From Escherichia phage kaset: 64,000 bases of DNA. Where the stretch lies: sequence record PV245935.1. One strand, written 5' to 3'. Of this stretch, positions 6,590 through 51,244 are shown piece after piece. The notes under the pieces are model-generated. The model saw only the letters and a list, made by a program, of their open reading frames with translations. It made no database searches and was not told where the DNA came from. How positions within the stretch are numbered: position 1 is the stretch's first letter; every line of letters begins with the position of its first letter. The position numbers and the translations under genes were made by a program.

Positions 6590-6960
6590 CTGGCAGTGGA
6601 TTGCCGCAGGATTTTACGCGTATAATGACGTATCATCCGTATCAAGTAAGTAGTTGTTTTCAAAAGAATCTTACGGATGATACGGATGATACGCGTTGCC
6701 GCGATACTTTATAGGAATTCAAATAAATTAATTTAAAATTATATATCTAATTTAATTTTATTTTTTTATAAACTCTTATATATGAAAAGTATCCGTATCA
6801 TCCGTATCATCCGTAGCACACCAGTGATAGCGCGGCTTATACACCGATACGGATAAAAATACGCCTCATTTTATCCGTATCATCCGTATCACACTAATTA
6901 AGGCGCGGCTATATCGGTTGTTATACATATTCAAACCATAATTATTGTTTGCCTAAGTTT
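6590..6960. repeat. noncoding region with 9-bp ATCATCCGT/ACGGATGAT repeats in both orientations plus CGTATAATGACGTA box (copy A)
   Basis: tandem copies at 6631-6644, 6672-6695 (inverted), 6791-6816, 6872-6890; a ~45 bp core is nearly identical to 58758-58800. Confidence 0.7.
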
Positions 6961-6977
6961 TTTTCATTAGATATAAT
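6949..6977 (+). promoter_or_regulatory. sigma70-like promoter upstream of protease/scaffold gene
   Basis: TTGCCT-N17-TATAAT, 24 bp upstream of ATG 7001. Confidence 0.4.
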
Positions 6978-33533: not shown

Positions 33534-35057
33534 TTAATTCATCTTTTTGCCGTCGAGGATGTGATCAGCAAGCATAGACTTCATACTTAGTGAACGCTGA
33601 ATTTCTTCATCGATGGTGTCAACACCAATAAAATCAACATACAACACGCTTGATTTGGTGCCGATGCGGTGATTTCGGTCTTCGGATTGCTTGCGCAACT
33701 CGTTGTCGTAGTTGCAAGAATAATAAATTGCCAAGTCAGCGGCTGTAAGCGTGATGCCGATGCCTGCCGCAGCAGCGTGGCAGACCAATACTTGTGTTCC
33801 ACCATTCTCGACTGTGTTTTTCTGGAAGTCATCAATCAAGAACTCACGCTGCTCTTTTGACGTTTCACCGTTGTATACACCCGTGACCACGCCTTCAGAC
33901 TCAAGCCAATCCTTAATCTGGTTCATCTCTTCCTTAAAGATGGCCCAAACAATGAACTTGCGCTCTGGGTCGTCTTCCAGCACCCCTTCCACATAATCCT
34001 TAAAGGCCGTGAATCGTGGGTTGTCTTCCATGTAGACCATCTCATCATACACCTTAACAAAACCGGATGTCACCTGCTTCATCTTAGTGCGCGACGCGAT
34101 CATCTCAAACTTGACGTTTTCTTCTTCGCCCTTGTATTCCATCAAATAGTTGTACTCATTCTTGAGTTCATCGTAAACATCGCGTTGTTTAGGCGACAAC
34201 TCGAAGTCAATAAACTTGTACACCTTCTCTGGAAGGTCAGGCAAGTATTCTGCTTTTGTTGCACGAAAATAGTGCGGTTCCATCAGCCGGATAAGCTTGT
34301 CAAGGTTCTTGTACATCGGTCGGCCAAACTGGTCTTTGCGCGGCACTTGCGGAATCCCATAGCCATTGCCGCCGATTTTCTTGAGGATGGCTTGCATCTC
34401 TGGGTCGTGCGCTTCAAGCAGCACAGTGAATTCAGAGTTGAAGGCGCGGAAAGATTTGGTGCCGAGCAATCCTGCTTCAAGGAAGTGATATTGCATGTAA
34501 ATATCAGCAGGCGAGCGCGGCAACGGCGTGCCAGAAAGGATTCGACGGGCCTTTGCCAGCCGTCCCAATTCCACAACCTTGATGGAGCGTTTGGCTGTGT
34601 TATTCTTGATGCGCGTTGATTCGTCGATGATCATCAGGCAGCGGTACTTCTTCAAGACCGACTCGATGTGTTGATAACCGACTGGTGTGTTGACAGTATC
34701 GATGTTGAATGAGAAGATGCGCGCAGGCACTTCGCCTTCGGGGTAGTGATCAGCAAACATCTTCTCCCAAAGCGCCTTGCCCTTTTTAGTTTTCATCTTA
34801 TCATTGCCGCGCCAGTAGTGCCCAATCCACTTGATGGAAAGGTGTTCTGGTGCTTCACGACGAATCCAGTTTGAGTGGACGCCGTTTGGAGCGATGACGA
34901 CCATGGCATCGAACGCGCCAGCGGTGAAGTGCTTTTCAAACTCTGCCAAAGCGGTCCAAGTTTTACCAAGACCCTGTTCCATAAAATAGGCAAAGTATTT
35001 TCTGCGGCCTGCTTTATCAAGCGCCAATAGTTGGTGGCGCATTCCTTGTGTTTTCAT
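33534..35057 (-). CDS. SNF2-family (DEAD/DEAH-like) helicase
   Basis: 507 aa; GLGKT Walker A, IIDESTRIKN DExx box, LSGTPLPRSP motif, C-terminal QSEDRNHRIG. Confidence 0.75.
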   Translation of the reverse strand: MKTQGMRHQLLALDKAGRRKYFAYFMEQGLGKTWTALAEFEKHFTAGAFDAMVVIAPNGVHSNWIRREAPEHLSIKWIGHYWRGNDKMKTKKGKALWEKMFADHYPEGEVPARIFSFNIDTVNTPVGYQHIESVLKKYRCLMIIDESTRIKNNTAKRSIKVVELGRLAKARRILSGTPLPRSPADIYMQYHFLEAGLLGTKSFRAFNSEFTVLLEAHDPEMQAILKKIGGNGYGIPQVPRKDQFGRPMYKNLDKLIRLMEPHYFRATKAEYLPDLPEKVYKFIDFELSPKQRDVYDELKNEYNYLMEYKGEEENVKFEMIASRTKMKQVTSGFVKVYDEMVYMEDNPRFTAFKDYVEGVLEDDPERKFIVWAIFKEEMNQIKDWLESEGVVTGVYNGETSKEQREFLIDDFQKNTVENGGTQVLVCHAAAAGIGITLTAADLAIYYSCNYDNELRKQSEDRNHRIGTKSSVLYVDFIGVDTIDEEIQRSLSMKSMLADHILDGKKMN

Positions 35058-35476
35058 GACAATTCCTCTAAATACTTAATGATGTGATGAATAGTTCCCT
35101 TCACGATTATCTCACGTTGAACGTCTGCAATATTATAACGCTTTAATTCAATCGAAGGGTGGACTAAATAAAACATCTTCTCAGAATCGACTTTAAGCAA
35201 AACAAATGATGGGTATTTCCAATCATTCCACGAAGAAAGAAAGCTGCACTGACCTTTCTCAAATGCATTTCTGAAAGGTGCAGTGGTAGCCCTTGCAGGC
35301 CACGATTCAAAGAACTTCATTTCAAGCCAAAAGCCGCGCCCTTTCCGGTTGGTGCCGATTACATCCGGCACACCATCACCCGTCATGGATTCGATTCTTT
35401 GAAGCTTCAATACTGATTCCGAATGCTTCTTCAAAGGTACGAATATGTATTTCTGTTCACGGTTGTTTGTTGCCAT
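35054..35476 (-). CDS. VRR-NUC domain nuclease (putative)
   Basis: about 140 aa; GVPDVIG...GFWLEMKF pattern of PD-(D/E)xK VRR-NUC; 5' end overlaps DnaE-like gene so an internal start was chosen. Confidence 0.45.
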   Translation of the reverse strand: MATNNREQKYIFVPLKKHSESVLKLQRIESMTGDGVPDVIGTNRKGRGFWLEMKFFESWPARATTAPFRNAFEKGQCSFLSSWNDWKYPSFVLLKVDSEKMFYLVHPSIELKRYNIADVQREIIVKGTIHHIIKYLEELS

Positions 35477-38360
35477 CTGGATACACCTGTTTGATAACGT
35501 CGACGATGAACATGTCAATGCCTTCAAGTTTGCGACCTTTCATCAGGAAGAATGCACCGTTCCCGACGTTCTCTGCAATGTACTTCCCGTACTTCTGGAA
35601 CTTCTCTGGGCGAATCCTGAAACGCATTGGCGAATCGGTCGAATCGTCTTTGCACATAAGGTCGATGAACTGAGTTTCAAGCTTGTTTCCATACTGGTCA
35701 AACTCTGCGTAGCGGCCATCGGCCTGAAGACCCTTTTTAAGTTTGCCGTGCTTTGTATAAATGCCGCGCTCAAGACGTTTACGGATTCGTGTTGCTTCGT
35801 TCTCGTCTGCCAGCACTTTCTTGGTCAACTTGCCGATTACTATTGCACGCTCATCATCGCCTACTTCCTTCATCTGGCGTATTGAAGCACCGGAAGTAAC
35901 GCCAATCAGATAGGGGTCATTATACGCCCAGCCGAACTTGGTGTGCATCTCTGTAAGGTCGCCGTATTTGACTTCAGCATTGGCCAATGCATCCTTTTGC
36001 TTTTGCGTTAAGGTTCCGGCTTCACGTGCTTCGATATACTTCATCGCCTTCACCATTCCGTACCCTTTAGCGTTCATGATGCCGCCGATTAGCTTTCCGT
36101 TAGCGATGGTCCAGTTCATTGAAGAGTGATCAGGGTCGATTGGCACATAATCCACGCCTTCCTTCGCAAGTTCACGTAATATCGCAATCGTCTGGTCTTC
36201 GTCCTTAGCAGCGCGTAAGCAGGCAGCGGCAAATTCCAACGGGTAGTGTCGTTTAAGCCACAAGGTCCAGTAGGTCACGACCGCGTATGATACGGAGTGT
36301 GACTTGTTAAAGCCCCATGACCCGAACGTCGCCATCGCTTGCCAAAGCTTTCTTGCATCCGCTTCCGGTACGCCGTTATTTATTGCGCCTGCAACGAAGT
36401 CTTCGCCAAGCTTGTTAAAGTATTCCTCACCCTTACGGCCTGACATCGCCTTACGTACAGCGGATGTCTTCGCCCAGTCAAATGAACCAATCTCTTTCAC
36501 CACGGCCATGATTTGCTCTTGGTAAAGAAACACGCCGTAAGTCTCTTTTAAGTACGGCTCAAGCTGCGGCACGTCGTACTCAATCGGCGCACGTCCTGCC
36601 GCGCGTTCAATGTATTTCTGGGCCATACCGGATGACAACGGGCCAGGTCGACCAAGTGCTGTCAGGTTATCGATTTTGTTAAAGTTATCAACGTGCACAA
36701 AGTTGGTTACTGAGCGTACAGCATCGCCTTCGAACTGGAAGATGCCTGACATCTTATTTTCGTTAAGGATGTCAAGGACGCTTTGATCATTGAGCTTGAT
36801 TCCGTACAGCGTTTCAGCATCTATCACGCCAGTATCGGAAATTATTCCGAGTGTGCGGAGGCCCAGCGCATCAAGCTTCAAAAGGTTAAGGTATTCGCTG
36901 TCAGGCTTATCAATTTGCGCAATCCCTTCCGCCGTTACCGTACAGTAATCAGAGATTGGATCATTACACACGATGATTCCCGCTGCGTGAACGCCAGTGT
37001 GGGAAGGGTGAATCTCAAGGTCACCCATGCATCGCGCGGCGTCAGGATATTTCGCCACGAACTCTTGGCCCGTGGTCGTGGTTGCAAAGGTATCCTCCAG
37101 GCCGTGACCATAACGGGCGTCACCGGATGAGTATTCAAGCAATGCGTTTTTAATGTTGGCCGTTTCGTGATAGCCGATGTTGAACTTCTTACCAACCTGA
37201 GCCATTACTGAGTTGGCCTTAAGCGTGTTGATGTTGCCAAGTTTTGCAACGTTCATTTCGCCGTATTTTTCTTTAAGGTAATCAAACACCATATAGCGTT
37301 TGGTATCCTCAAAGTCAATATCAATATCAGGAAGGTCGGCGCGGCTTACGTCGATGAATCGGGCAAACAACAGCTTATACGGGATTGGGTCAACTTCCGT
37401 GATGCCGAGACAATAGCAAACCAGTGAACCAGCCGATGAGCCGCGAGCGGGTCCGACGAGCATTTTTGTCTTTGCGAATCGTACAAGGTCTGCTACCACC
37501 AGAAAGTATGAGTCGAAATCTTTCAGCTGAATCTGGTGAATCTCTTCGTTGAATCGGTCCTCATATTCCTGAGTCCATTCTTTGATGTGGCCTGCCTTGA
37601 GGCGGTACTCCATCCCCTCACGAGCAAGTTTAACCATGTCACCAGCAAGGTGAATAATCGGTGCCTTGCGCAACTTCAGGCCAAGCCCCACGATTCCGTT
37701 TGCGATATCAACAGCATTGGACGTTGCTTGATTCAACTCATCTTCGGTAAGGATTCCTTCAAGCTGTTTTCGCAAGTCTTCCGCGTCAACGATGCAATGC
37801 GGCTTAACTGTGTCGCGAACTTCCCACGCATAAGCAAAGTCGACGTGCTCAGGTGAAGGCATATGGTTGTATCCGGTTAAAACCAGCGGCCTTCCGTTGC
37901 TGCGGTGAGCCAATGCCTGGCGCTTAGCCAAAAGGAACGATGATGGGTTGACGTCTATATAATCGTAGTCCTCTGGCAGCAGCAACTCCACGGCACCGCC
38001 ACAGAATTTAACGACTCCATCGAGCGCCCCGAACTCTGCACGGGTCAGTCCGCCGCGCTGTGTTGCAAGTGTCGTAGCGTTGTAAAAAGATTTCAGGTCA
38101 AGGGCCAATATCCAAGCCTTCGGTTTGAATCCCTTTTTCGGGTCCGCATCAGGGTCAATGATTGGAATCTCCATGCCGAACATAGGCTTGATATCATTCT
38201 TCTGACATTCCTTTTCCCAGCGAACGTGACCCCATGTATTGTTGTCAACTAATGCCGCGACTTCGCAGCCCAACTCTTTGAGCCGTGCTATAATTTCAGG
38301 ATGCCGTCCATATACTTCTTTGAACGTGTAACCGCTGCGAACTCTCAATTGTGGAAACAT
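35457..38360 (-). CDS. dnaE: DNA polymerase III alpha subunit-like replicative polymerase (DnaE family)
   Basis: 967 aa; N-terminal PHP-like region; palm motif GPARGSSAGSLVCYCLGITEVDP. Confidence 0.85.
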   Translation of the reverse strand: MFPQLRVRSGYTFKEVYGRHPEIIARLKELGCEVAALVDNNTWGHVRWEKECQKNDIKPMFGMEIPIIDPDADPKKGFKPKAWILALDLKSFYNATTLATQRGGLTRAEFGALDGVVKFCGGAVELLLPEDYDYIDVNPSSFLLAKRQALAHRSNGRPLVLTGYNHMPSPEHVDFAYAWEVRDTVKPHCIVDAEDLRKQLEGILTEDELNQATSNAVDIANGIVGLGLKLRKAPIIHLAGDMVKLAREGMEYRLKAGHIKEWTQEYEDRFNEEIHQIQLKDFDSYFLVVADLVRFAKTKMLVGPARGSSAGSLVCYCLGITEVDPIPYKLLFARFIDVSRADLPDIDIDFEDTKRYMVFDYLKEKYGEMNVAKLGNINTLKANSVMAQVGKKFNIGYHETANIKNALLEYSSGDARYGHGLEDTFATTTTGQEFVAKYPDAARCMGDLEIHPSHTGVHAAGIIVCNDPISDYCTVTAEGIAQIDKPDSEYLNLLKLDALGLRTLGIISDTGVIDAETLYGIKLNDQSVLDILNENKMSGIFQFEGDAVRSVTNFVHVDNFNKIDNLTALGRPGPLSSGMAQKYIERAAGRAPIEYDVPQLEPYLKETYGVFLYQEQIMAVVKEIGSFDWAKTSAVRKAMSGRKGEEYFNKLGEDFVAGAINNGVPEADARKLWQAMATFGSWGFNKSHSVSYAVVTYWTLWLKRHYPLEFAAACLRAAKDEDQTIAILRELAKEGVDYVPIDPDHSSMNWTIANGKLIGGIMNAKGYGMVKAMKYIEAREAGTLTQKQKDALANAEVKYGDLTEMHTKFGWAYNDPYLIGVTSGASIRQMKEVGDDERAIVIGKLTKKVLADENEATRIRKRLERGIYTKHGKLKKGLQADGRYAEFDQYGNKLETQFIDLMCKDDSTDSPMRFRIRPEKFQKYGKYIAENVGNGAFFLMKGRKLEGIDMFIVDVIKQVYPDGNKQP

Positions 38361-38902
38361 TATTTACTCCATATGTCATATACGCCAATTTGTTGGCAGA
38401 CTTTGTGCAGTAATATTACGTCGTCTAATGCACGGTGCTTCTGTTCATATTTTCCGAAATATAATTCATACAACTCTTGAAGCTTAACTCTTCGGCCAAA
38501 AATAGGCAAGGTTTGCTCGACTGTACAAATGTTTATTTCTGGAAAATTAACATCACCAAGTGTAAGACCTTCGCGCTGTAATGCATAGTCAAGAATGTTT
38601 TTATCAAACGCATGGTTGTGCGCGATAGTTGCATCCGTCTTCTTGAATATTTCTTTTAGCTGCGGAACGAAATGAATAAATGGTGGATTGCACTCAAGGT
38701 CTTCGTTGGTTAATCCGGTAATCTTCGTGATGATTTCTTCAATCACAATTTCAGGATTAATTATGAACTCGAACGTTTCAAGAATCTCTTTGCCGTCCGT
38801 CAACAGGCCTGCAAATTCAATAGGGCGCGGCTGCATTCCAAGCGGCGCTTTCGGGTGCACGGTTAATCCGGTTGTTTCGAAGTCATAAGGGAGAAATAAC
38901 AC
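38360..38902 (-). CDS. DnaQ-like 3'-5' exonuclease (DEDDh)
   Basis: 180 aa; Exo I YDFETTG, Exo II IAHNHAFD, Exo III HRALDDV; 1-nt overlap with DnaE-like gene start. Confidence 0.8.
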   Translation of the reverse strand: MLFLPYDFETTGLTVHPKAPLGMQPRPIEFAGLLTDGKEILETFEFIINPEIVIEEIITKITGLTNEDLECNPPFIHFVPQLKEIFKKTDATIAHNHAFDKNILDYALQREGLTLGDVNFPEINICTVEQTLPIFGRRVKLQELYELYFGKYEQKHRALDDVILLHKVCQQIGVYDIWSK

Positions 38903-43864: not shown

Positions 43865-44710
43865 TTATTCCGCTTGATCACCGTCTTCGGCATCGTCGTT
43901 GGATTCAACATCGACAAACTCGATGTGGCCCATCTCTTCCAGCTTGCTCAGGTAGGAGCGAACGGAAGCGCCAAACAGTTGATCTTTAACTTTTTCGCCC
44001 AGCTCATCGATAGACTGCGCCACGCCAACTTCGCCTTCTTTGATCGCCGCTAGAACGCGTCCACGGGTGGAATGCTCTTGCGGCTGGCTCAGGCCATTGC
44101 CAGTGTAGATGAAGTGGGTTGCTTTTGCACGACGCTGACCGTTTGCCTTTTTAGCAGCCTTACGTTCTGCGATGGCTTTGCGACGTTCTTCAGCTTCTTG
44201 CTTACGCTGTTCTTTCTGCTGTTCTGCAGCTTCTTTTGCCGCAATCTTAGCAGCTTCACGCTCTGCCTTGCGTTTCGCTTTAGCTTCTTCTTTGGCCTTC
44301 TCTTTTTCGGCCTTCGCTGCAGCACGGGCTTGATCACGCTCTGCTTTCTTAGCAGCAGCTTGTTCAGCTTTCAGGCGCTTGGCTTCTTCTTTAGCCTTTG
44401 CCTTTTCGATTTCTTTCGCTGCTTTAGCGGCTTCACGCTCTGCTTTCTTAGCAGCAGCCTTTTCTGCGCGCTCTTTGGCCTTCTTAGCTGCTTCTTCAGC
44501 ACGCTTCTGAGCCTTCTCATCAGCAGCCTGCTTGCGTTTCAGTGCAGCTTCTTCACGCTTGGCTTGTTTTTCCTGCTCACGCTTCTGGCGTTTTTCTTCG
44601 GCTTCTTTCTTTTTAGCCAGGCGTTTTTCTTCAGCCACGCGACGACGTTCTGCTGCAGCTGCTTGTTTTTCTTCTTTAGATAATACTTTGATTGCTTCGG
44701 CCATGTTCAC
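43865..44710 (-). CDS. Lys/Ala/Glu-rich helical-repeat protein with C-terminal winged-helix-like domain
   Basis: 281 aa; ~200 aa of KAE/R-rich low-complexity helix (TolA domain II-like) then ~80 aa globular C-terminus. Confidence 0.55.
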   Translation of the reverse strand: MNMAEAIKVLSKEEKQAAAAERRRVAEEKRLAKKKEAEEKRQKREQEKQAKREEAALKRKQAADEKAQKRAEEAAKKAKERAEKAAAKKAEREAAKAAKEIEKAKAKEEAKRLKAEQAAAKKAERDQARAAAKAEKEKAKEEAKAKRKAEREAAKIAAKEAAEQQKEQRKQEAEERRKAIAERKAAKKANGQRRAKATHFIYTGNGLSQPQEHSTRGRVLAAIKEGEVGVAQSIDELGEKVKDQLFGASVRSYLSKLEEMGHIEFVDVESNDDAEDGDQAE

Positions 44711-46048: not shown

Positions 46049-46374
46049 TATAACTCCACTACGCTTTCAAGGTCCAGATATACTGGAATAAAATGGCAAT
46101 CTTCTTTTCGTTCAAACATCTCGCCGTCAACGTGACTGAAGAAGACAGTTGTGTTTGGTATCTTCCACCCTTTCTCGTCGCGCACCAGGTACGCCATGGA
46201 TTCAACAGGGATGTAAAGCGATACCGGATTCGCGGCAAAGATGAATTTGATTCTGTCTGGTTGACCCAGGAATCGCATAATTGTAAGACTTGAATTCAGT
46301 CTTGTATTAAGGAAGGACTCAACAATGCCGACGTGTGTTGCACGTTCGCGTTGCTTCGTATCTTTTTCGTTCAT
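46048..46374 (-). CDS. hypothetical protein (first gene of leftward operon)
   Basis: 108 aa; start faces divergent promoter region 46375-46534. Confidence 0.45.
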   Translation of the reverse strand: MNEKDTKQRERATHVGIVESFLNTRLNSSLTIMRFLGQPDRIKFIFAANPVSLYIPVESMAYLVRDEKGWKIPNTTVFFSHVDGEMFERKEDCHFIPVYLDLESVVEL

Positions 46375-46477
46375 TTCAGGCGACCTTTGTTAGTGCGGAA
46401 ATATTTTCTGATAGTATAATTGCAGATATAGTATAAAGCAAAGTAAATCGAAATTGTGAACTAAATGGTAAATATTG

Positions 46478-46505
46478 TTGACTTTGTATCACTCAATATT
46501 ATACT
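46478..46505 (+). promoter_or_regulatory. sigma70-like promoter for rightward early operon
   Basis: TTGACT-N16-TATACT, 30 bp upstream of ATG 46535. Confidence 0.45.
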
Positions 46506-46534
46506 GCAGGTATTGATCACCGAAGGAAAGAAAG

Positions 46535-47617
46535 ATGGCTAGTTTAAGAGAAGAAGCAAAAATAATCGAAGAGTTTTTGACGGAACTCCAAAGAGGCATT
46601 CCAGAAGATGAACGCGTCATGACTGTGTTTGCGCCTGAAGCAACGGTGCAGACCGACGAGCGCGGCAAAAAGATTAACAGCAGCTTCTGGCCTAAGCCTT
46701 GGAAGCTTGGCAAGCCGCTGATGCAACATCAGAACGGTTACGCCTGCATAAGTTCAATGCGCAAGTCTCCCAACCCAAAGACAGGCGAGATGCGATACTG
46801 GCGCACGGAATCGGCTTTCGGTCATGGCATGGCAATGATGGTCGACGACATCGGACACGGTAAAGGGTCAAAGGGCGATTTAGATTTGGAGTTCTTTTTC
46901 GAGCGTCTGAAGCCAACCGTTATCGTTGAGACTTCACCGAACAACCATCAGCTGTGGTACTTCTTTAAAGAACCGATTGACCATCTTATTCAGTTCAAAG
47001 CATTCCTTGGGTCTTTCGTAAACATGGTACTCAAGAAGGGCGGCGACAACACGATTAAAGACGTGACGCGCGTGGGCCGTGTTCCTGGGTGCATCAACAA
47101 TAAGCGTGTGACTCACGACGGCCCCTATAAATATGTCGATGAGAACGGCGACCCGTTCCGCTGCCGACTTGTTCATGCAGACTATTCTTTGCGCTACACA
47201 ATCGAAGAGATTTGCCAAGCATTCGGTTTCCACGTCGTTATGCCGCAAAAGCGTGAAATTCAAATCGACGTTGACGAATACAAATATGACGCTGTTTGGT
47301 ATAAGATAGCCCAGCAAATCCTTGCGCGCAATAAGATGGGCGAAGGGTCCGATGGCGATGTGGTTGAAAACATGTCAGGTAAATGCCGCATCATCTGTCC
47401 TTGGGGTGAAGAGCACACCAACGGCGACCCATACGGCGCTTATTTTCGCGGCCCAATCCCTGGCGCTGAACATGAATTCGTTTTCGGTTGCGCTCACGAC
47501 TGTCACCGGAAAGGGGAAGGCAAGAAAGGCTGGACCGCTTTTGTTGAAGCAGTAGTCATGCCTTATATTGAGAATCAACTTGATATGATAAATCGTCGCG
47601 CAGGTGGCATAAAATAG
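46535..47617 (+). CDS. primase-polymerase-like protein (AEP family) with C-terminal zinc-binding region
   Basis: 360 aa; MVDDIGHG (DxD-like), NHQLWYF (His motif), Cys/His cluster CRIICPWGEEH...CAHDCH. Confidence 0.5.
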   Translation: MASLREEAKIIEEFLTELQRGIPEDERVMTVFAPEATVQTDERGKKINSSFWPKPWKLGKPLMQHQNGYACISSMRKSPNPKTGEMRYWRTESAFGHGMAMMVDDIGHGKGSKGDLDLEFFFERLKPTVIVETSPNNHQLWYFFKEPIDHLIQFKAFLGSFVNMVLKKGGDNTIKDVTRVGRVPGCINNKRVTHDGPYKYVDENGDPFRCRLVHADYSLRYTIEEICQAFGFHVVMPQKREIQIDVDEYKYDAVWYKIAQQILARNKMGEGSDGDVVENMSGKCRIICPWGEEHTNGDPYGAYFRGPIPGAEHEFVFGCAHDCHRKGEGKKGWTAFVEAVVMPYIENQLDMINRRAGGIK

Positions 47618-47664
47618 TTTGCTTTTATTTTTCTAGCAACTATAATCATTTTATGAACTGAAGC

Positions 47665-47822
47665 AGAGGTGATTTATGAAAAGCGAAGAATTGAATATCG
47701 AGCTTGAAGGTCTGTTAAAGTCGTTAGAACCTAAGCCCGTAGAGCTTCCCACCCTTGAAGGTGTCATGGCTCACCACCAATCGGCTGCGGCCAAACACTA
47801 CTATGAATTTGTTAAGGAATAA
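47665..47822 (+). CDS. small hypothetical protein (52 aa)
   Basis: ATG 47665 with AGAGGTG RBS; below ORF-track size cutoff. Confidence 0.3.
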
Positions 47823-47824
47823 AA

Positions 47825-48115
47825 ATGAACGAACCAAAAATGATGACTCCTGAAGAAGCGCAAAAACTTCGCGTGGAGAACGAGCTTAAGCTTGTCAATG
47901 AAATCCTTCCTCTGTTTAAAGGCTATGCGGTTGAAGAAGTCGTTGGCGCAATCCTTAATGTGTCGACGCACGTGGCGATGAATCTGAATGCAGAGCGTTT
48001 CAATACTTTGCTGACGATTAACAACTTTACTGTCAGTGCAACGTTTACCGTTGAGCCAGTGAATTTTGAAGAAGCTGCAGCCGCGATTCAACAACAGCGA
48101 GATCAAGAGGTGTAG
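47825..48115 (+). CDS. hypothetical protein
   Basis: 96 aa; AAGGAA RBS. Confidence 0.4.
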   Translation: MNEPKMMTPEEAQKLRVENELKLVNEILPLFKGYAVEEVVGAILNVSTHVAMNLNAERFNTLLTINNFTVSATFTVEPVNFEEAAAAIQQQRDQEV

Positions 48116-48116
48116 C

Positions 48117-48380
48117 ATGGGTGCTTTCCGCAACGAGTTCGTTTGGAACGTCACAAGCAGTCTTTCGACTTGTCCTAACTGTGCAAGTGATGTGATCAAG
48201 GTGCGGCAGCATCGCAATGCAGAGGAAGGTGCCTGGGAGGACGGCGACCTTGTAGAGTGCCAGTGTTGCTCTCACGAAGGCGTGGTGGAGCTTTACGCCG
48301 GAGAAGGTTGTCCACCAGCAGAACGTACAGCACGCGTTGAATGGGATGCGACAGACTCCATTGGTGATCCTCAACAGTAA
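48117..48380 (+). CDS. small zinc-ribbon protein
   Basis: 88 aa from ATG 48117 (RBS AGAGGTG); CPNC ... CQCC. Confidence 0.4.
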   Translation: MGAFRNEFVWNVTSSLSTCPNCASDVIKVRQHRNAEEGAWEDGDLVECQCCSHEGVVELYAGEGCPPAERTARVEWDATDSIGDPQQ

Positions 48381-48398
48381 ATTTAGGTATAGATACAT

Positions 48399-48503
48399 AT
48401 GAAAGCCGTAAAGAAATACACATTAATCATTTCCCTTGTTATCATCCTGGGGCTATTATATGTATTGGATATGGCATATTATTTGGCAGGGGTGAGTAAA
48501 TGA
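48399..48503 (+). CDS. small hydrophobic peptide (34 aa)
   Basis: MKAVKKYTLIISLVIILGLLYVLDMAYYLAGVSK; stop overlaps next ATG (ATGA); weak RBS. Confidence 0.3.
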   Translation: MKAVKKYTLIISLVIILGLLYVLDMAYYLAGVSK

Positions 48504-48790
48504 ATATTGTAATTCTTTATGGTGAGAATATCAGCGATGACGACATCGAAGTTGCCGTTGATGTTTACGGTATCGATGAGGTGAAACGTGTTGAAGAAAT
48601 TAATGGCGCAAATCTTAACGAGATTGTCAAAGAAGCTGGTTGCCCTTCGGAAGAGATTCTGGTGGTTACTAACGATGACCTGTCTTCTATGGATTGTTTG
48701 CGCCGCATCTTCACCGATTGCCAATACCTTCATGCTGTTCAGTCAGTAAACAAATTGAGAAAGACATACGCTGACCAATTTCCTTGCTGA
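48500..48790 (+). CDS. hypothetical protein
   Basis: 96 aa acidic protein. Confidence 0.4.
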   Translation: MNIVILYGENISDDDIEVAVDVYGIDEVKRVEEINGANLNEIVKEAGCPSEEILVVTNDDLSSMDCLRRIFTDCQYLHAVQSVNKLRKTYADQFPC

Positions 48791-48840
48791 TAGTTCACCA
48801 GTTATATTGCTTTAAACTGAGTTTTACTATATTAATATAC

Positions 48841-48866
48841 AACGCCAGATTTCTGGCGTTTATTTA
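48841..48866 (+). terminator. Rho-independent terminator
   Basis: AACGCCAGAtttcTGGCGTT followed by TATTTA. Confidence 0.5.
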
Positions 48867-48926
48867 CCGCACCCTGAAAGGATATATCCATGCAACAATA
48901 TAACAAAGCCGTATCAGGAGGATTAA

Positions 48927-50597
48927 ATGTCAATTGAACATGACAATCTTCCAGAGGATACAGGTGATGAATTTGGTGCAATCTTTGACGAAATTCAAGA
49001 TGCTGGTGTTTCAGAAGAAATGCAAGCGGCAGAGCAGCAAGGCACCAGAGCTAAAATAAGCCTTCAGCACAAGGCTGTTGAGAAAGATGCAGAGCGCATG
49101 GAATGCTACGGTGAAGAAGACTTGGTTGAAAGAGCACGTTTGCTCGCCTCACTTCAGGTAATCAAGTTCCCTCACTACAAACCGACGAAAGATGATTTTG
49201 TTCTTCAGGCGGACCGGACGAGTGACATGAACCGTTATGCGGTTTTCGACGCGTTGTTTGATAAGGGAAGCGGCATCGTCCCATTCCCTCACAAAGATAC
49301 TTTTCGTGGACGCTTAGTCGACCATCGCGGCGAAACATTCACCGACCGGACATTGGAAGTCACAGAGATAGTTGCCGCTGTCGACGCAGCAGGTCTGTCC
49401 AACCCAAACTCACGTCAGGTCGCTCAATCCTATAAGGAATGGGCCATGCGTTATCAGCGCGACGACCTGATGGACTTCTTCTACAAGAAGCTGCCTGAAT
49501 GGGACGGTACTGCGCGCATTGAAAAATACCTTATCGAGCTATTCCGACCGTTCGATACAGAGTTAAACCGACAAATCGGTGTGTATTTTTGGCTATCGCT
49601 CTATAACCGCCTGACCAATCCTGGCTGTCAAGCGCCAATCTCCATTGCGCTCATCGGCGGCCAGAACGCAGGGAAGAGTTATTTTAGTAAGCTGCTTTGC
49701 GAAGCTATTATGAACGACCGCCACGCAACACCGATTCCGTTGAACTTGGCCGCGCAAAACTTCAACCCGTTCTTGCGAGCTATTACGGGTCGCTCAATTA
49801 TCGCGAACGTTGGCGAGATGACAGGCTTTAAAAAGGCTGACATCGAAAACATGAAAGCATTCCTGACTAAGACGGAAGATGACCTGGACTTCAAATTTGA
49901 AGATACGCAGGTTAAACCACGCCAGTGGATTGCTATCATGGACGGCAACGAATACGCAGGCATGCAGCGTGACGATACGGGCAACCGTCGTGTGTATCCT
50001 ATCTTTGTTGGCCAACTCGCCGACAAGGACGGGCAACCGAACTGGTCTAAAGACTTCCAAGCTGACCTTTCCACTTTGAAAGAAGACGTTTGGCAGCTGA
50101 TGGCTGAGTGCGCTGCGTGGATGGAGAAGCACGGCGAAGCAGGTTACAACGCCTTTGTTGGTGAAACATCTCGTATGCTTACTGAGTTCAGTAAGAACGA
50201 AATGGAACGTGCGCGCGGCGTTATCCGTGATGAGATGGTCGACAACGACCTTGTTGAAGTCATCATCACCGCGCCTTATGACCGACATCACAGCGGACGC
50301 TGGCACATCACCAGTGGGGCAATCGCTATGGGATTCAGAGCTAAGTGCGGCAAGTCGCCTTTCTCACGTACCCTTGCGCCGCACATGTCGAAGCTTGGAT
50401 TTGAGCCTGCAACCTATCGCAACCAGCGTGGCTACTTTACGCCGCTGATTAAGAATGAAGCAGGGGAATACATTTCTGACTTGATGACCATCTTAGCGTA
50501 TCTTATTCGCGACGAGTCTGACCCTGAAGATATTGAATTCTTGAAGAAGGTTATTGAACGCAAACGTTCTTTAGGAAGAGATAAGGATGAATTCTGA
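48927..50597 (+). CDS. VirE/D5-like primase-associated P-loop NTPase (putative replicative helicase)
   Basis: 556 aa; Walker A IALIGGQNAGKSY; follows primase gene. Confidence 0.55.
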   Translation: MSIEHDNLPEDTGDEFGAIFDEIQDAGVSEEMQAAEQQGTRAKISLQHKAVEKDAERMECYGEEDLVERARLLASLQVIKFPHYKPTKDDFVLQADRTSDMNRYAVFDALFDKGSGIVPFPHKDTFRGRLVDHRGETFTDRTLEVTEIVAAVDAAGLSNPNSRQVAQSYKEWAMRYQRDDLMDFFYKKLPEWDGTARIEKYLIELFRPFDTELNRQIGVYFWLSLYNRLTNPGCQAPISIALIGGQNAGKSYFSKLLCEAIMNDRHATPIPLNLAAQNFNPFLRAITGRSIIANVGEMTGFKKADIENMKAFLTKTEDDLDFKFEDTQVKPRQWIAIMDGNEYAGMQRDDTGNRRVYPIFVGQLADKDGQPNWSKDFQADLSTLKEDVWQLMAECAAWMEKHGEAGYNAFVGETSRMLTEFSKNEMERARGVIRDEMVDNDLVEVIITAPYDRHHSGRWHITSGAIAMGFRAKCGKSPFSRTLAPHMSKLGFEPATYRNQRGYFTPLIKNEAGEYISDLMTILAYLIRDESDPEDIEFLKKVIERKRSLGRDKDEF

Positions 50598-51244
50598 TGA
50601 ATAAAGCAATCAACATCGCTAAATTCTTTCAACATCTCGGTGAACTGAACAAAGAGAGTGACGTTCACGGAGAAGAAATGAACCGGATGATTTCAACCGT
50701 GTTGCGTGGTTTTGGGTACGATAAGGACTCCATCACCTGTAAACGCACGAAGCTTGTCGATGAGACATACCTTTACTACGTTGAATTGCGCGTAGGCAAG
50801 GATTTGATGATCATCGACCCTAAATTGGAAGGGGCGCACTGTTTTGGCGCTCACCCTCGTGCGAGTGAATTCAAGGGGCGCGGTCGCAACCGACTCCAGA
50901 AGCTTGATGATGCAGGCGACCTGAACATCTCGATGTTCCTCAAAGAGTTCCTTGCTCTGCCGAAGGTTGCATCCTCAACAGGTCGTGATGACCTGTGCAA
51001 GATTGGATTCAGAACTAAAGATTTGCGCAATGCGCTACGCAAGAAGGGATTTGTGCCTTCTTATGATAACGTCGCCGCGCTGATGGCTTCCATGGAGGAA
51101 GCTGAAGCAATGGATAAAGTGCGCGGCTATTTCCTGAATACAGGCTACACAATGTATGAGTGGCACACCAAAGGATTGACTGTCGCCGACTTCATCTATT
51201 CATTAGAGCAGAAGTATGTACGCAATATGCAGGCCACAGGATAA
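50597..51244 (+). CDS. hypothetical protein
   Basis: 215 aa; ATGA overlap with upstream stop. Confidence 0.45.
   Translation: MNKAINIAKFFQHLGELNKESDVHGEEMNRMISTVLRGFGYDKDSITCKRTKLVDETYLYYVELRVGKDLMIIDPKLEGAHCFGAHPRASEFKGRGRNRLQKLDDAGDLNISMFLKEFLALPKVASSTGRDDLCKIGFRTKDLRNALRKKGFVPSYDNVAALMASMEEAEAMDKVRGYFLNTGYTMYEWHTKGLTVADFIYSLEQKYVRNMQATG

Follow-up and report, generated by a model that had tools for sequence, protein, structure and literature searches.

Separate primase and helicase genes and paired origin-like iteron elements in Escherichia phage kaset

A primase and a helicase gene in a Wifcevirus

We analysed a window of 64,000 nucleotides from Escherichia phage kaset (sequence record PV245935.1), in which a primase gene (46535–47617, + strand, 360 aa, ATG start) is followed on the same strand by the gene of a superfamily 3 (SF3) helicase of the VapE/D5 class (48927–50597, 556 aa, ATG start). 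Both open reading frames (ORFs) stand as placed by an earlier interpretation, made by a model from the letters alone (the sequence-only reading), and two origin-like elements, A and B, lie elsewhere in the window. The 64-kb window is that of a Wifcevirus, an E. coli myophage of ∼68 kb and kin of Pseudomonas phage PB1. The 5-kb stretch around the gene pair shares 93–98% identity with 28 Wifcevirus records, which are E. coli and Shigella myoviruses of 66–72 kb such as WFH, WFC, FEC19, ECML-117, Ro157lw and Bas98-101. RefSeq attaches the label 'DNA primase' to both the primase and the helicase orthologues in Wifcevirus and Pbunavirus, and the gene pair is ordinary, a previously annotated representative of a replication module of known kind.

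The replicase encoded in the window is a DnaE-type Pol III alpha homologue of 967 aa (35457–38902, − strand), and an epsilon-like 3'-5' exonuclease is encoded apart from it. Further replication genes specify a Dda-like superfamily 1B (SF1B) helicase, a ligase and an SNF2-like translocase. The 556-aa SF3 protein is the sole hexameric-helicase candidate in the genome, the others being the Dda-like SF1B and SNF2-like enzymes.

An AEP-type primase with a zinc module

The primase matched the Pfam profile RepB_primase (PF16793; E 1.6e-36, 126.4 bits, cut-off 24.3) over residues 40–237 (nt 46652–47245; profile positions 4–181 of 186), and phrog_4861 'DNA primase' at 2e-198. It has the catalytic fold of an archaeo-eukaryotic primase (AEP), its best structural match being the AEP domain of S-2L PrimPol, and it is an AEP of the RepB'/S-2L type. 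Thirty-six homologues with 53–81% identity were aligned, from phages of Pantoea, Pseudomonas, Burkholderia, Xanthomonas, Erwinia and Luteibacter and from metagenomes. Invariant among them are D104-D105 (nt 46844–46849) and G169-G170-D171, together with T133-S134-x2-N137-x-Q139, D176, R179, R182 and N188-N189-K190. The catalytic aspartates of RSF1010 RepB' are D77, D78 and D134 (PMC8567376). Identity between the two proteins is ∼16% (phmmer E 0.4–0.8), and in the phmmer register the conserved D104/D105 pair falls opposite RepB' 77/78; D104, D105 and D171 would then correspond to the RepB' triad, with D171 placed by its spacing rather than by structural superposition.

Towards the C-terminus lies the Cys/His cluster C288-x5-H294-x24-C319-x-H321-x2-[C/H]324 (nt 47396–47506). 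C288, H294, C319 and H321 are invariant across the 36 homologues and position 324 is either C or H (H324 in the window protein), whereas the window protein has two further cysteines, C284 and C323, that are not conserved. The cluster belongs to a three-stranded zinc-type module that occupies the accessory position, is followed by a long helix, and is the best conserved part of the primase across genera (70–98% identity). The profile match, the invariant aspartates and the conserved cluster bear out the sequence-only reading of 46535–47617 as AEP primase-like with a C-terminal Cys/His cluster.

RepB' needs a helix-bundle accessory domain, which acts in dinucleotide formation (PMC8567376). No C-terminal helix bundle of the RepB' type was found in the phage primase, which differs from RepB' in having the zinc module instead. 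S-2L PrimPol differs in other respects: it is a fused chain, its accessory domain is PriCT-2, and it is the only polymerase of its phage, whereas the window phage has a DnaE-type replicase. The zinc segment alone gave no match in Pfam, a module profile built from 30 homologues gave chance matches only against PDB sequences, and hhalign against the zinc-binding domain of E. coli DnaG returned a probability of 1.3%. Foldseek hits to the primase were confined to the AEP domain, with none for the module, and no NCBIfam model matched either the primase or the helicase. Assignment of the module to the UL52/PrimPol-type CHC2 fingers was dropped, spacing being its only basis.

In the Pseudomonas phages 6917 (OL362268.1 54467–56720) and SMS12 (MN615700.1 56100–57252) the primase orthologue is recovered by tblastn in two pieces. 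Those of 6917 cover 2.25 kb as against ∼1.03 kb, which suggests insertion of an intron, an intein or a homing-endonuclease gene.

An SF3 helicase with a predicted winged helix

The helicase matched the Pfam profile VapE-like_dom (PF05272, formerly VirE; 1.6e-28, 100.1 bits, cut-off 25), and DUF5906 scored under its own cut-off. The ATPase core spans residues 186–430, with Walker A at residues 244–251 (nt 49656–49679). Across 39 homologues the Walker A residues G244-x4-G249-K250-S251 are invariant, as are E297, the motif C asparagine N341 and R354/R355. Profile, Walker A, Walker B, motif C asparagine and arginine finger all mark the protein as an SF3 helicase, and its fold is kin to D5, E1 and Rep40. 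The profile match and the invariant Walker A agree with the earlier description of 48927–50597 as a VirE/D5-like P-loop NTPase. Pfam searches detected no PriCT, D5_N or VirE_N domain in the helicase N-terminus.

In the structure model (predicted local distance difference test score, pLDDT, 85.7) the C-terminus adopts an H-E-H-H-E-E winged helix at residues 436–504 (nt 50232–50438), as in initiators of the type of Rep from Staphylococcus aureus pathogenicity islands (SaPIs). On this model the winged helix is a candidate origin-binding domain. The nearest solved relative is SaPI Rep, although sequence identity to it is only 19%. Experiments have established SaPI Rep as an initiator that binds iterons, and in SaPI Reps it is the C-terminal winged helix that reads the iterons (PMC9371898). 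The Pbunavirus orthologue of the helicase was named a candidate initiator in 2025, by homology to the SaPI Reps (PMC12390725).

Upstream of the helicase gene, direct reading of the sequence reveals a terminator-like hairpin, ACGCCAGA-TT-TCTGGCGT, followed by TTATTTA (48842–48866, + strand); it is missing from the terminator scan list because its loop is under 3 nt. The hairpin suggests that the helicase gene is its own transcription unit. A 215-aa ORF (50597–51244, + strand) starts within the helicase stop codon (ATGA) and has counterparts of similar size at the equivalent position in Kyle, L017 and L018. It has no Pfam or PHROG matches, and could be a partner of the helicase or else another candidate for origin binding.

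Separate genes throughout the clade

The primase and the helicase occupy two genes in every relative examined. These relatives include phages of Pantoea (Kyle), Pseudomonas (PB1), Serratia (MyoSmar), Burkholderia (Karil-Mokiny-1) and Xanthomonas (XcP1), and the metagenomic contigs L017 and L018. The gap between the genes ranges from a 4-nt overlap in XcP1, through 338 nt in PB1, 1.3 kb in the window phage, 1.8 kb in L017, 2.1 kb in L018, 2.5 kb in Kyle and 2.7 kb in Karil-Mokiny-1, to 5.8 kb in MyoSmar. In the window this interval, whose length is variable in relatives, holds six small ORFs (47676–48905, + strand) to which neither the annotation of the orthologous region of Bas100 nor Pfam and PHROG scans gave a function; one of them, 48066–48380, has a weak zinc-ribbon match.

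The sequence-only reading had likened the pair to a P4-alpha-type primase-helicase split into two genes. P4 alpha unites in one polypeptide a primase domain of the Toprim/DnaG type, not AEP, with a zinc ribbon, D5_N, an SF3 helicase and an iteron-binding C-terminal winged helix, and it requires two iteron regions, ori and crr. Neither phage protein matched Toprim, Prim_Zn_Ribbon or D5_N, and membership of the P4 alpha type is ruled out by the AEP fold of the primase and by the two genes. Since the primase of P4 alpha is Toprim-type, 'P4-alpha-type' names a logic and not a family. It is in this functional logic, with its ori and crr, that P4 alpha matches what we propose below.

'Split' is apt as a concept, yet what it describes is a clade-wide state and no local event. 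A fused counterpart exists in S-2L PrimPol, a single chain of AEP, PriCT-2 and VirE-type helicase (PMC8065100). Among the SaPIs, primase and rep are separate in SaPI1, as in the window phage, and fused in SaPI5 (PMC9371898). SaPI Pri/Rep and S-2L PrimPol are better comparators than P4 alpha. The hidden Markov model annotation suggested as a check returned RepB_primase and VirE (now VapE-like_dom), with PriCT and D5_N undetected.

Two origin-like elements

A second claim of the sequence-only reading was that ACGGATGAT repeats mark a candidate origin for this pair. There are 12 exact copies of ACGGATGAT, of which 10 fall in two clusters (6632–6887 and 58761–58946); allowing up to one mismatch raises the count to 33, where 14.4 are expected, and 0 of 100 shuffles reached 33. 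Repeat and GC analysis delimited an origin-like element at each cluster, A at 6600–6920 and B, a paralogue of A, at 58610–59010. The two share the 45-nt core CTTACGGATGATACGGATGATACGCGTyGCCGC..ATACTTTATA. Element A lies between structural genes, 5' of the head-maturation protease gene. It contains a perfect 22-nt inverted repeat, TACGGATGATACGGATGATACG (6672–6693 and 6794–6815), with a spacer of 100 nt, a central 80 nt of 10% GC, and additional 9-bp iteron copies, and it is at least 92.8% identical in 28 of 28 Wifcevirus records. Element B likewise has an AT-rich centre and inverted iteron copies. The AT-rich centres of A and B have 10–23% GC and inverted iterons on both sides, which is the layout of a SaPI-type ori, where opposed iterons flank an AT-rich centre.

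Conservation of B was assessed in eight lineages (the window phage, Kyle, PB1, MyoSmar, Karil-Mokiny-1, XcP1, L017 and L018) and that of A in three complete genomes (Wifcevirus, Kyle and PB1). The architecture of B was present in eight of eight and that of A in three of three. Kyle and PB1 possess both elements at map positions as in the window phage, and nowhere is the PB1 genome lower in GC than at these two; in MyoSmar, Karil-Mokiny-1, XcP1, L017 and L018 element B was found. As with the SaPI ori, element B in four genera comes directly after the helicase gene, at distances of 301 nt (XcP1), 352 nt (Karil-Mokiny-1), 438 nt (MyoSmar) and 443 nt (PB1). The corresponding distance is 5.9 kb in Kyle and 8.2 kb in the window phage.

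The resemblance to SaPIs has further limits. The module resides here in a lytic 68-kb myophage with a DnaE-type polymerase of its own; the origin-like elements are two paralogues as against one ori; the iterons measure 8–11 bp as against 5–6 in SaPIs; and besides its distance from the helicase gene in the window phage, B coincides with a terminal-repeat boundary. For the ACGGATGAT repeats, the candidate-origin claim gains from the SaPI-ori layout and the comparative evidence, with the amendment that they form two separate regions and not one.

A polar motif flanking the AT-rich centres

We counted GCCGC in the 250-nt flanks of the AT centres of 11 elements. To the left of the centre the top strand carries 26 GCCGC and 2 GCGGC; to the right it carries 32 GCGGC and 0 GCCGC. 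One polarity therefore accounts for 58 of 60 sites (binomial p 3e-15, for elements that are homologous and not independent trials), over a background of ∼0.5–0.7 per 250 nt in each orientation. The oriented consensus is TTGCCGC[A/G]AG, and the sequence around the motifs is otherwise unalignable between genera. When the polarity was scored along whole genomes, the highest value fell at A or B in three of three complete genomes. The TTGCCGC sites of element A are at 6603 and 6698 on the top strand and at 6832 and 6905 on the bottom strand; the GCCGC sites of element B are at 58614 and 58733 (top) and at 58930, 58976 and 59004 (bottom).

If GCCGC is the template-strand form of the motif, primers would run outward from a melted centre, as needed for leading-strand starts behind outward-moving 3'-5' SF3 helicases. 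RepB' offers a model for such sites: it primes at specific opposite-strand sites, ssiA and ssiB, of oriV, and synthesis is leading-strand only (PMC8567376). The likeness is partial, for the candidate sites here are short, multiple and free of obvious hairpins, in contrast to the 40-nt ssi hairpins. We infer that the polar motif may be read by the primase zinc module.

Iteron turnover and the helicase C-terminus

The iteron word differs by lineage and is common to A and B of one genome. It is ACGGATGAT in Wifcevirus, GGAATAACC in Kyle, GGTAATTT in PB1, GATAACTAA in Karil-Mokiny-1, of the ATGATACGT type in L017 and TATCCGCAAGA in L018. The word is nearly confined to the two elements (9 of 11 genome-wide copies in Wifcevirus, 5 of 6 in PB1), and no genus had the word of another in its elements. 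That two distant loci change in concert points to one phage-encoded, sequence-specific binder.

This turnover also bears on the idea that host DnaA, with no phage protein, recognises A and B. The iteron complement TTATCCGTA resembles a DnaA box, and the right arm of A contains two one-mismatch boxes (TTATACACC and TTATACATA; 6837–6845 and 6921–6929) against 0.3 expected per 400 nt. The elements hold no perfect DnaA box, however, and the iterons differ between lineages; to our knowledge the DnaA box consensus is universal among the hosts of these phages. We regard recognition by DnaA as highly improbable. A single match to the integration host factor consensus was found, in element B.

When the window helicase was compared with those of the seven other lineages, the ATPase core was 49–83% identical and the winged helix 14–54%. 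Against Bas100, which has the same iteron, the values were 100% and 99%. Divergence of the winged helix fits co-evolving iteron specificity, as far as sequence comparison can indicate.

It is also conceivable that primase and helicase are fork components only, for priming of the lagging strand and for unwinding, with the origin chosen by another phage protein, such as a small early one or the 215-aa ORF, or through transcription or recombination. R-loop or recombination initiation occurs in many phages, the region has many unassigned small ORFs, the 215-aa ORF is positioned as described and recurs in three relatives, and in the window phage the helicase gene is far from element B. Set against this are the resemblance of the helicase winged-helix C-terminus to the SaPI and P4 initiators, its status as the fastest-evolving part of the helicase in step with iteron turnover, and the abutment of element B and the helicase gene in four genera. 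We judge a role restricted to the fork to be rather unlikely, if still worth keeping in mind.

Element B at the end of the terminal repeat

Record ends place the direct terminal repeat at 58828–62497 (62578 in WFC; PhageTerm and coverage statements on Wifcevirus ends are given in PMC6563267 and PMC6753283). The physical left end, 58827|58828 (AACTCC|ATTTTG), is inside the AT-rich centre of element B; to it map the first base of WFH, Ro157lw and WFC and the last base of Mansfield. In Kyle the left end is 69565|69566 and the centre of element B 69571, and in MyoSmar (L014 ∼11054) the repeat boundary determined by PhageTerm is within ∼60 nt of the centre. The terminal repeat measures 3.5–3.8 kb in the phages with element B at the left end. 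AACTCC|ATTTTGAA is conserved between Wifcevirus and L017, and AACTCCATTTTGAA recurs in the centre of the L017 element B.

A strong sigma-70-like promoter (TTGCCT-17-TATAAT, 6949–6977) is situated directly downstream of element A, and strong tandem sigma-70-like promoters (TTGAAC/TTGAAT-17-TATAAT, 59107–59153) directly downstream of element B; transcription may thus leave or activate the putative origins.

The end positions and these promoter-like sites would suit a different role for A and B, as packaging or terminus-generating sites, or as transcription-control regions bound by a regulator, and not as origins. Yet A has the architecture of B, and all four Wifcevirus records with physical ends put the terminus at B, none at A. 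Both elements are also kept in Pbunavirus, for which recent reports describe headful, circularly permuted genomes, earlier reports on the ends being contradictory (PMC12390725). Moreover, mirror symmetry at the lowest-GC spot and strand-polar flanks typify bidirectional origins and not promoters. We consider a packaging or control function in place of an origin unlikely. That A is no terminus and that Pbunavirus is reported as headful would favour an origin co-opted as repeat boundary over a pure packaging site.

The terminal repeat also contains the ATTTGCACTAT array (59165–60372, + strand, core TTGCACTA), which the sequence-only reading had listed as a second noncoding candidate origin. A motif count gave eight exact copies of ATTTGCACTAT at 59165–60370, far above chance, and nine matches with up to one mismatch against 1.85 expected. 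The core is kept at an equivalent place in Kyle, where it is limited to the terminal repeat with five copies per repeat on one strand (L010 580–1476), and in L017 (15197–16083). The copies in the window, however, are all on the + strand, are spaced irregularly by 14–486 nt, surround no AT-rich centre and are limited to the first 1.6 kb of the terminal repeat, as are 10 of the 11 window copies of TTGCACTA (first ∼1.6 kb). Several copies lie inside ORFs, and the array is not purely noncoding as supposed. TTGCACTA was not found in PB1, although PB1 has the equivalent primase and helicase. That this array is an iteron origin for the primase-helicase pair is very unlikely, and the claim is not supported. 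ATTTGCACTAT/TTGCACTA is a conserved, polar, repeat-specific signal without the features of an iteron origin, and may serve ejection, packaging or early regulation.

A proposed initiation module

We think it probable that primase and helicase are the phage's own initiation module, acting at A and B as putative twin origins. The helicase, of the SaPI-Rep/VapE class, would be both initiator and unwinder. Its winged helix would bind the 9-bp ACGGATGAT iterons opposed across the AT-rich centre at A (∼6750) and B (∼58825), and the helicase would melt the centre and load itself there as a hexamer. The primase, whose zinc module replaces the usual helix-bundle accessory domain, would then supply the initial primers, perhaps at the polar TTGCCGC sites on the strand that templates outward synthesis, and the DnaE-type phage polymerase would extend them. 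A fuller version, in which A and B are bidirectional origins with a layout not described before, the winged helix reads the iterons, the zinc module reads TTGCCGC and B also makes the left end of the 3.7-kb repeat, is put forward tentatively from the sequence comparisons, as a possibility that we would not yet call likely. The interpretation offered by the sequence-only reading is partly supported; its link to ACGGATGAT is plausible and has comparative support.

Several observations weigh against the proposed initiation module. Neither A nor B stands out in cumulative GC skew, which tracks gene orientation with turns near 28 kb, 46 kb and 60 kb and which we set aside as an uninformative origin marker. 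In the Banzai paper the skew minima fall among the replication genes. The faster divergence of the helicase C-terminal domain could mean mere weaker constraint, and the GCCGC core is just 5 nt long in elements that share ancestry. The helicase gene of the window phage is distant from B, and the coincidence of B with the genome end could reflect service in packaging instead. A is just 5' of a promoter-like site for head genes and B is 5' of early promoters, making a transcriptional role possible.

For this phage group the only published origin suggestion is that of PMC12390725, which uses GC skew, puts the origin at skew minima in the replication genes, inside the polymerase gene, and describes no iterons. 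A literature search on Lindbergviridae/Pbunavirus and iterons found nothing. The pairing of iteron elements, the GCCGC polarity of their flanks and the position of B at the terminal-repeat end, none of which was found in the searchable literature, appear undescribed. The paired elements are concrete, testable origin candidates for the whole group, with the helicase C-terminal winged helix as candidate initiator domain, and TTGCCGC as candidate primase recognition motif; an origin may also be linked to the terminal-repeat end. If the fuller version is true, a lytic phage would prime both leading strands site-specifically in the manner of RSF1010, and would couple replication initiation to terminal-repeat formation at origin B. 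PB1-like phages (Pbunavirus) are among the most-used therapy Pseudomonas phages, and defined origins would be of use in phage engineering, rebooting and minimal replicons.

Neighbouring features

A consensus scan predicts a sigma-70-like promoter (TTGACT-16-TATACT, 46478–46505, + strand; 10 of 12 matches) 30 nt 5' of the primase start, in a divergent intergenic region shared with the operon of the Dda-like helicase. This region (46374–46535) was considered as an origin and rejected, as it contains promoter-like sequence only and no iterons. An Rfam search of the window returned no structured RNA matches. The gene annotated 'DNA helicase' at 33534–35057 encodes an SNF2-like protein and no replicative helicase. 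Wifceviruses are reported to be unusually fast replicators (PMC11990801). Beside the gene of the Dda-like helicase, 43865–44710 (− strand) encodes a 281-aa protein (phrog_4765) with ∼200 residues of extreme Lys/Ala/Glu-rich low complexity followed by a small globular C-terminus.

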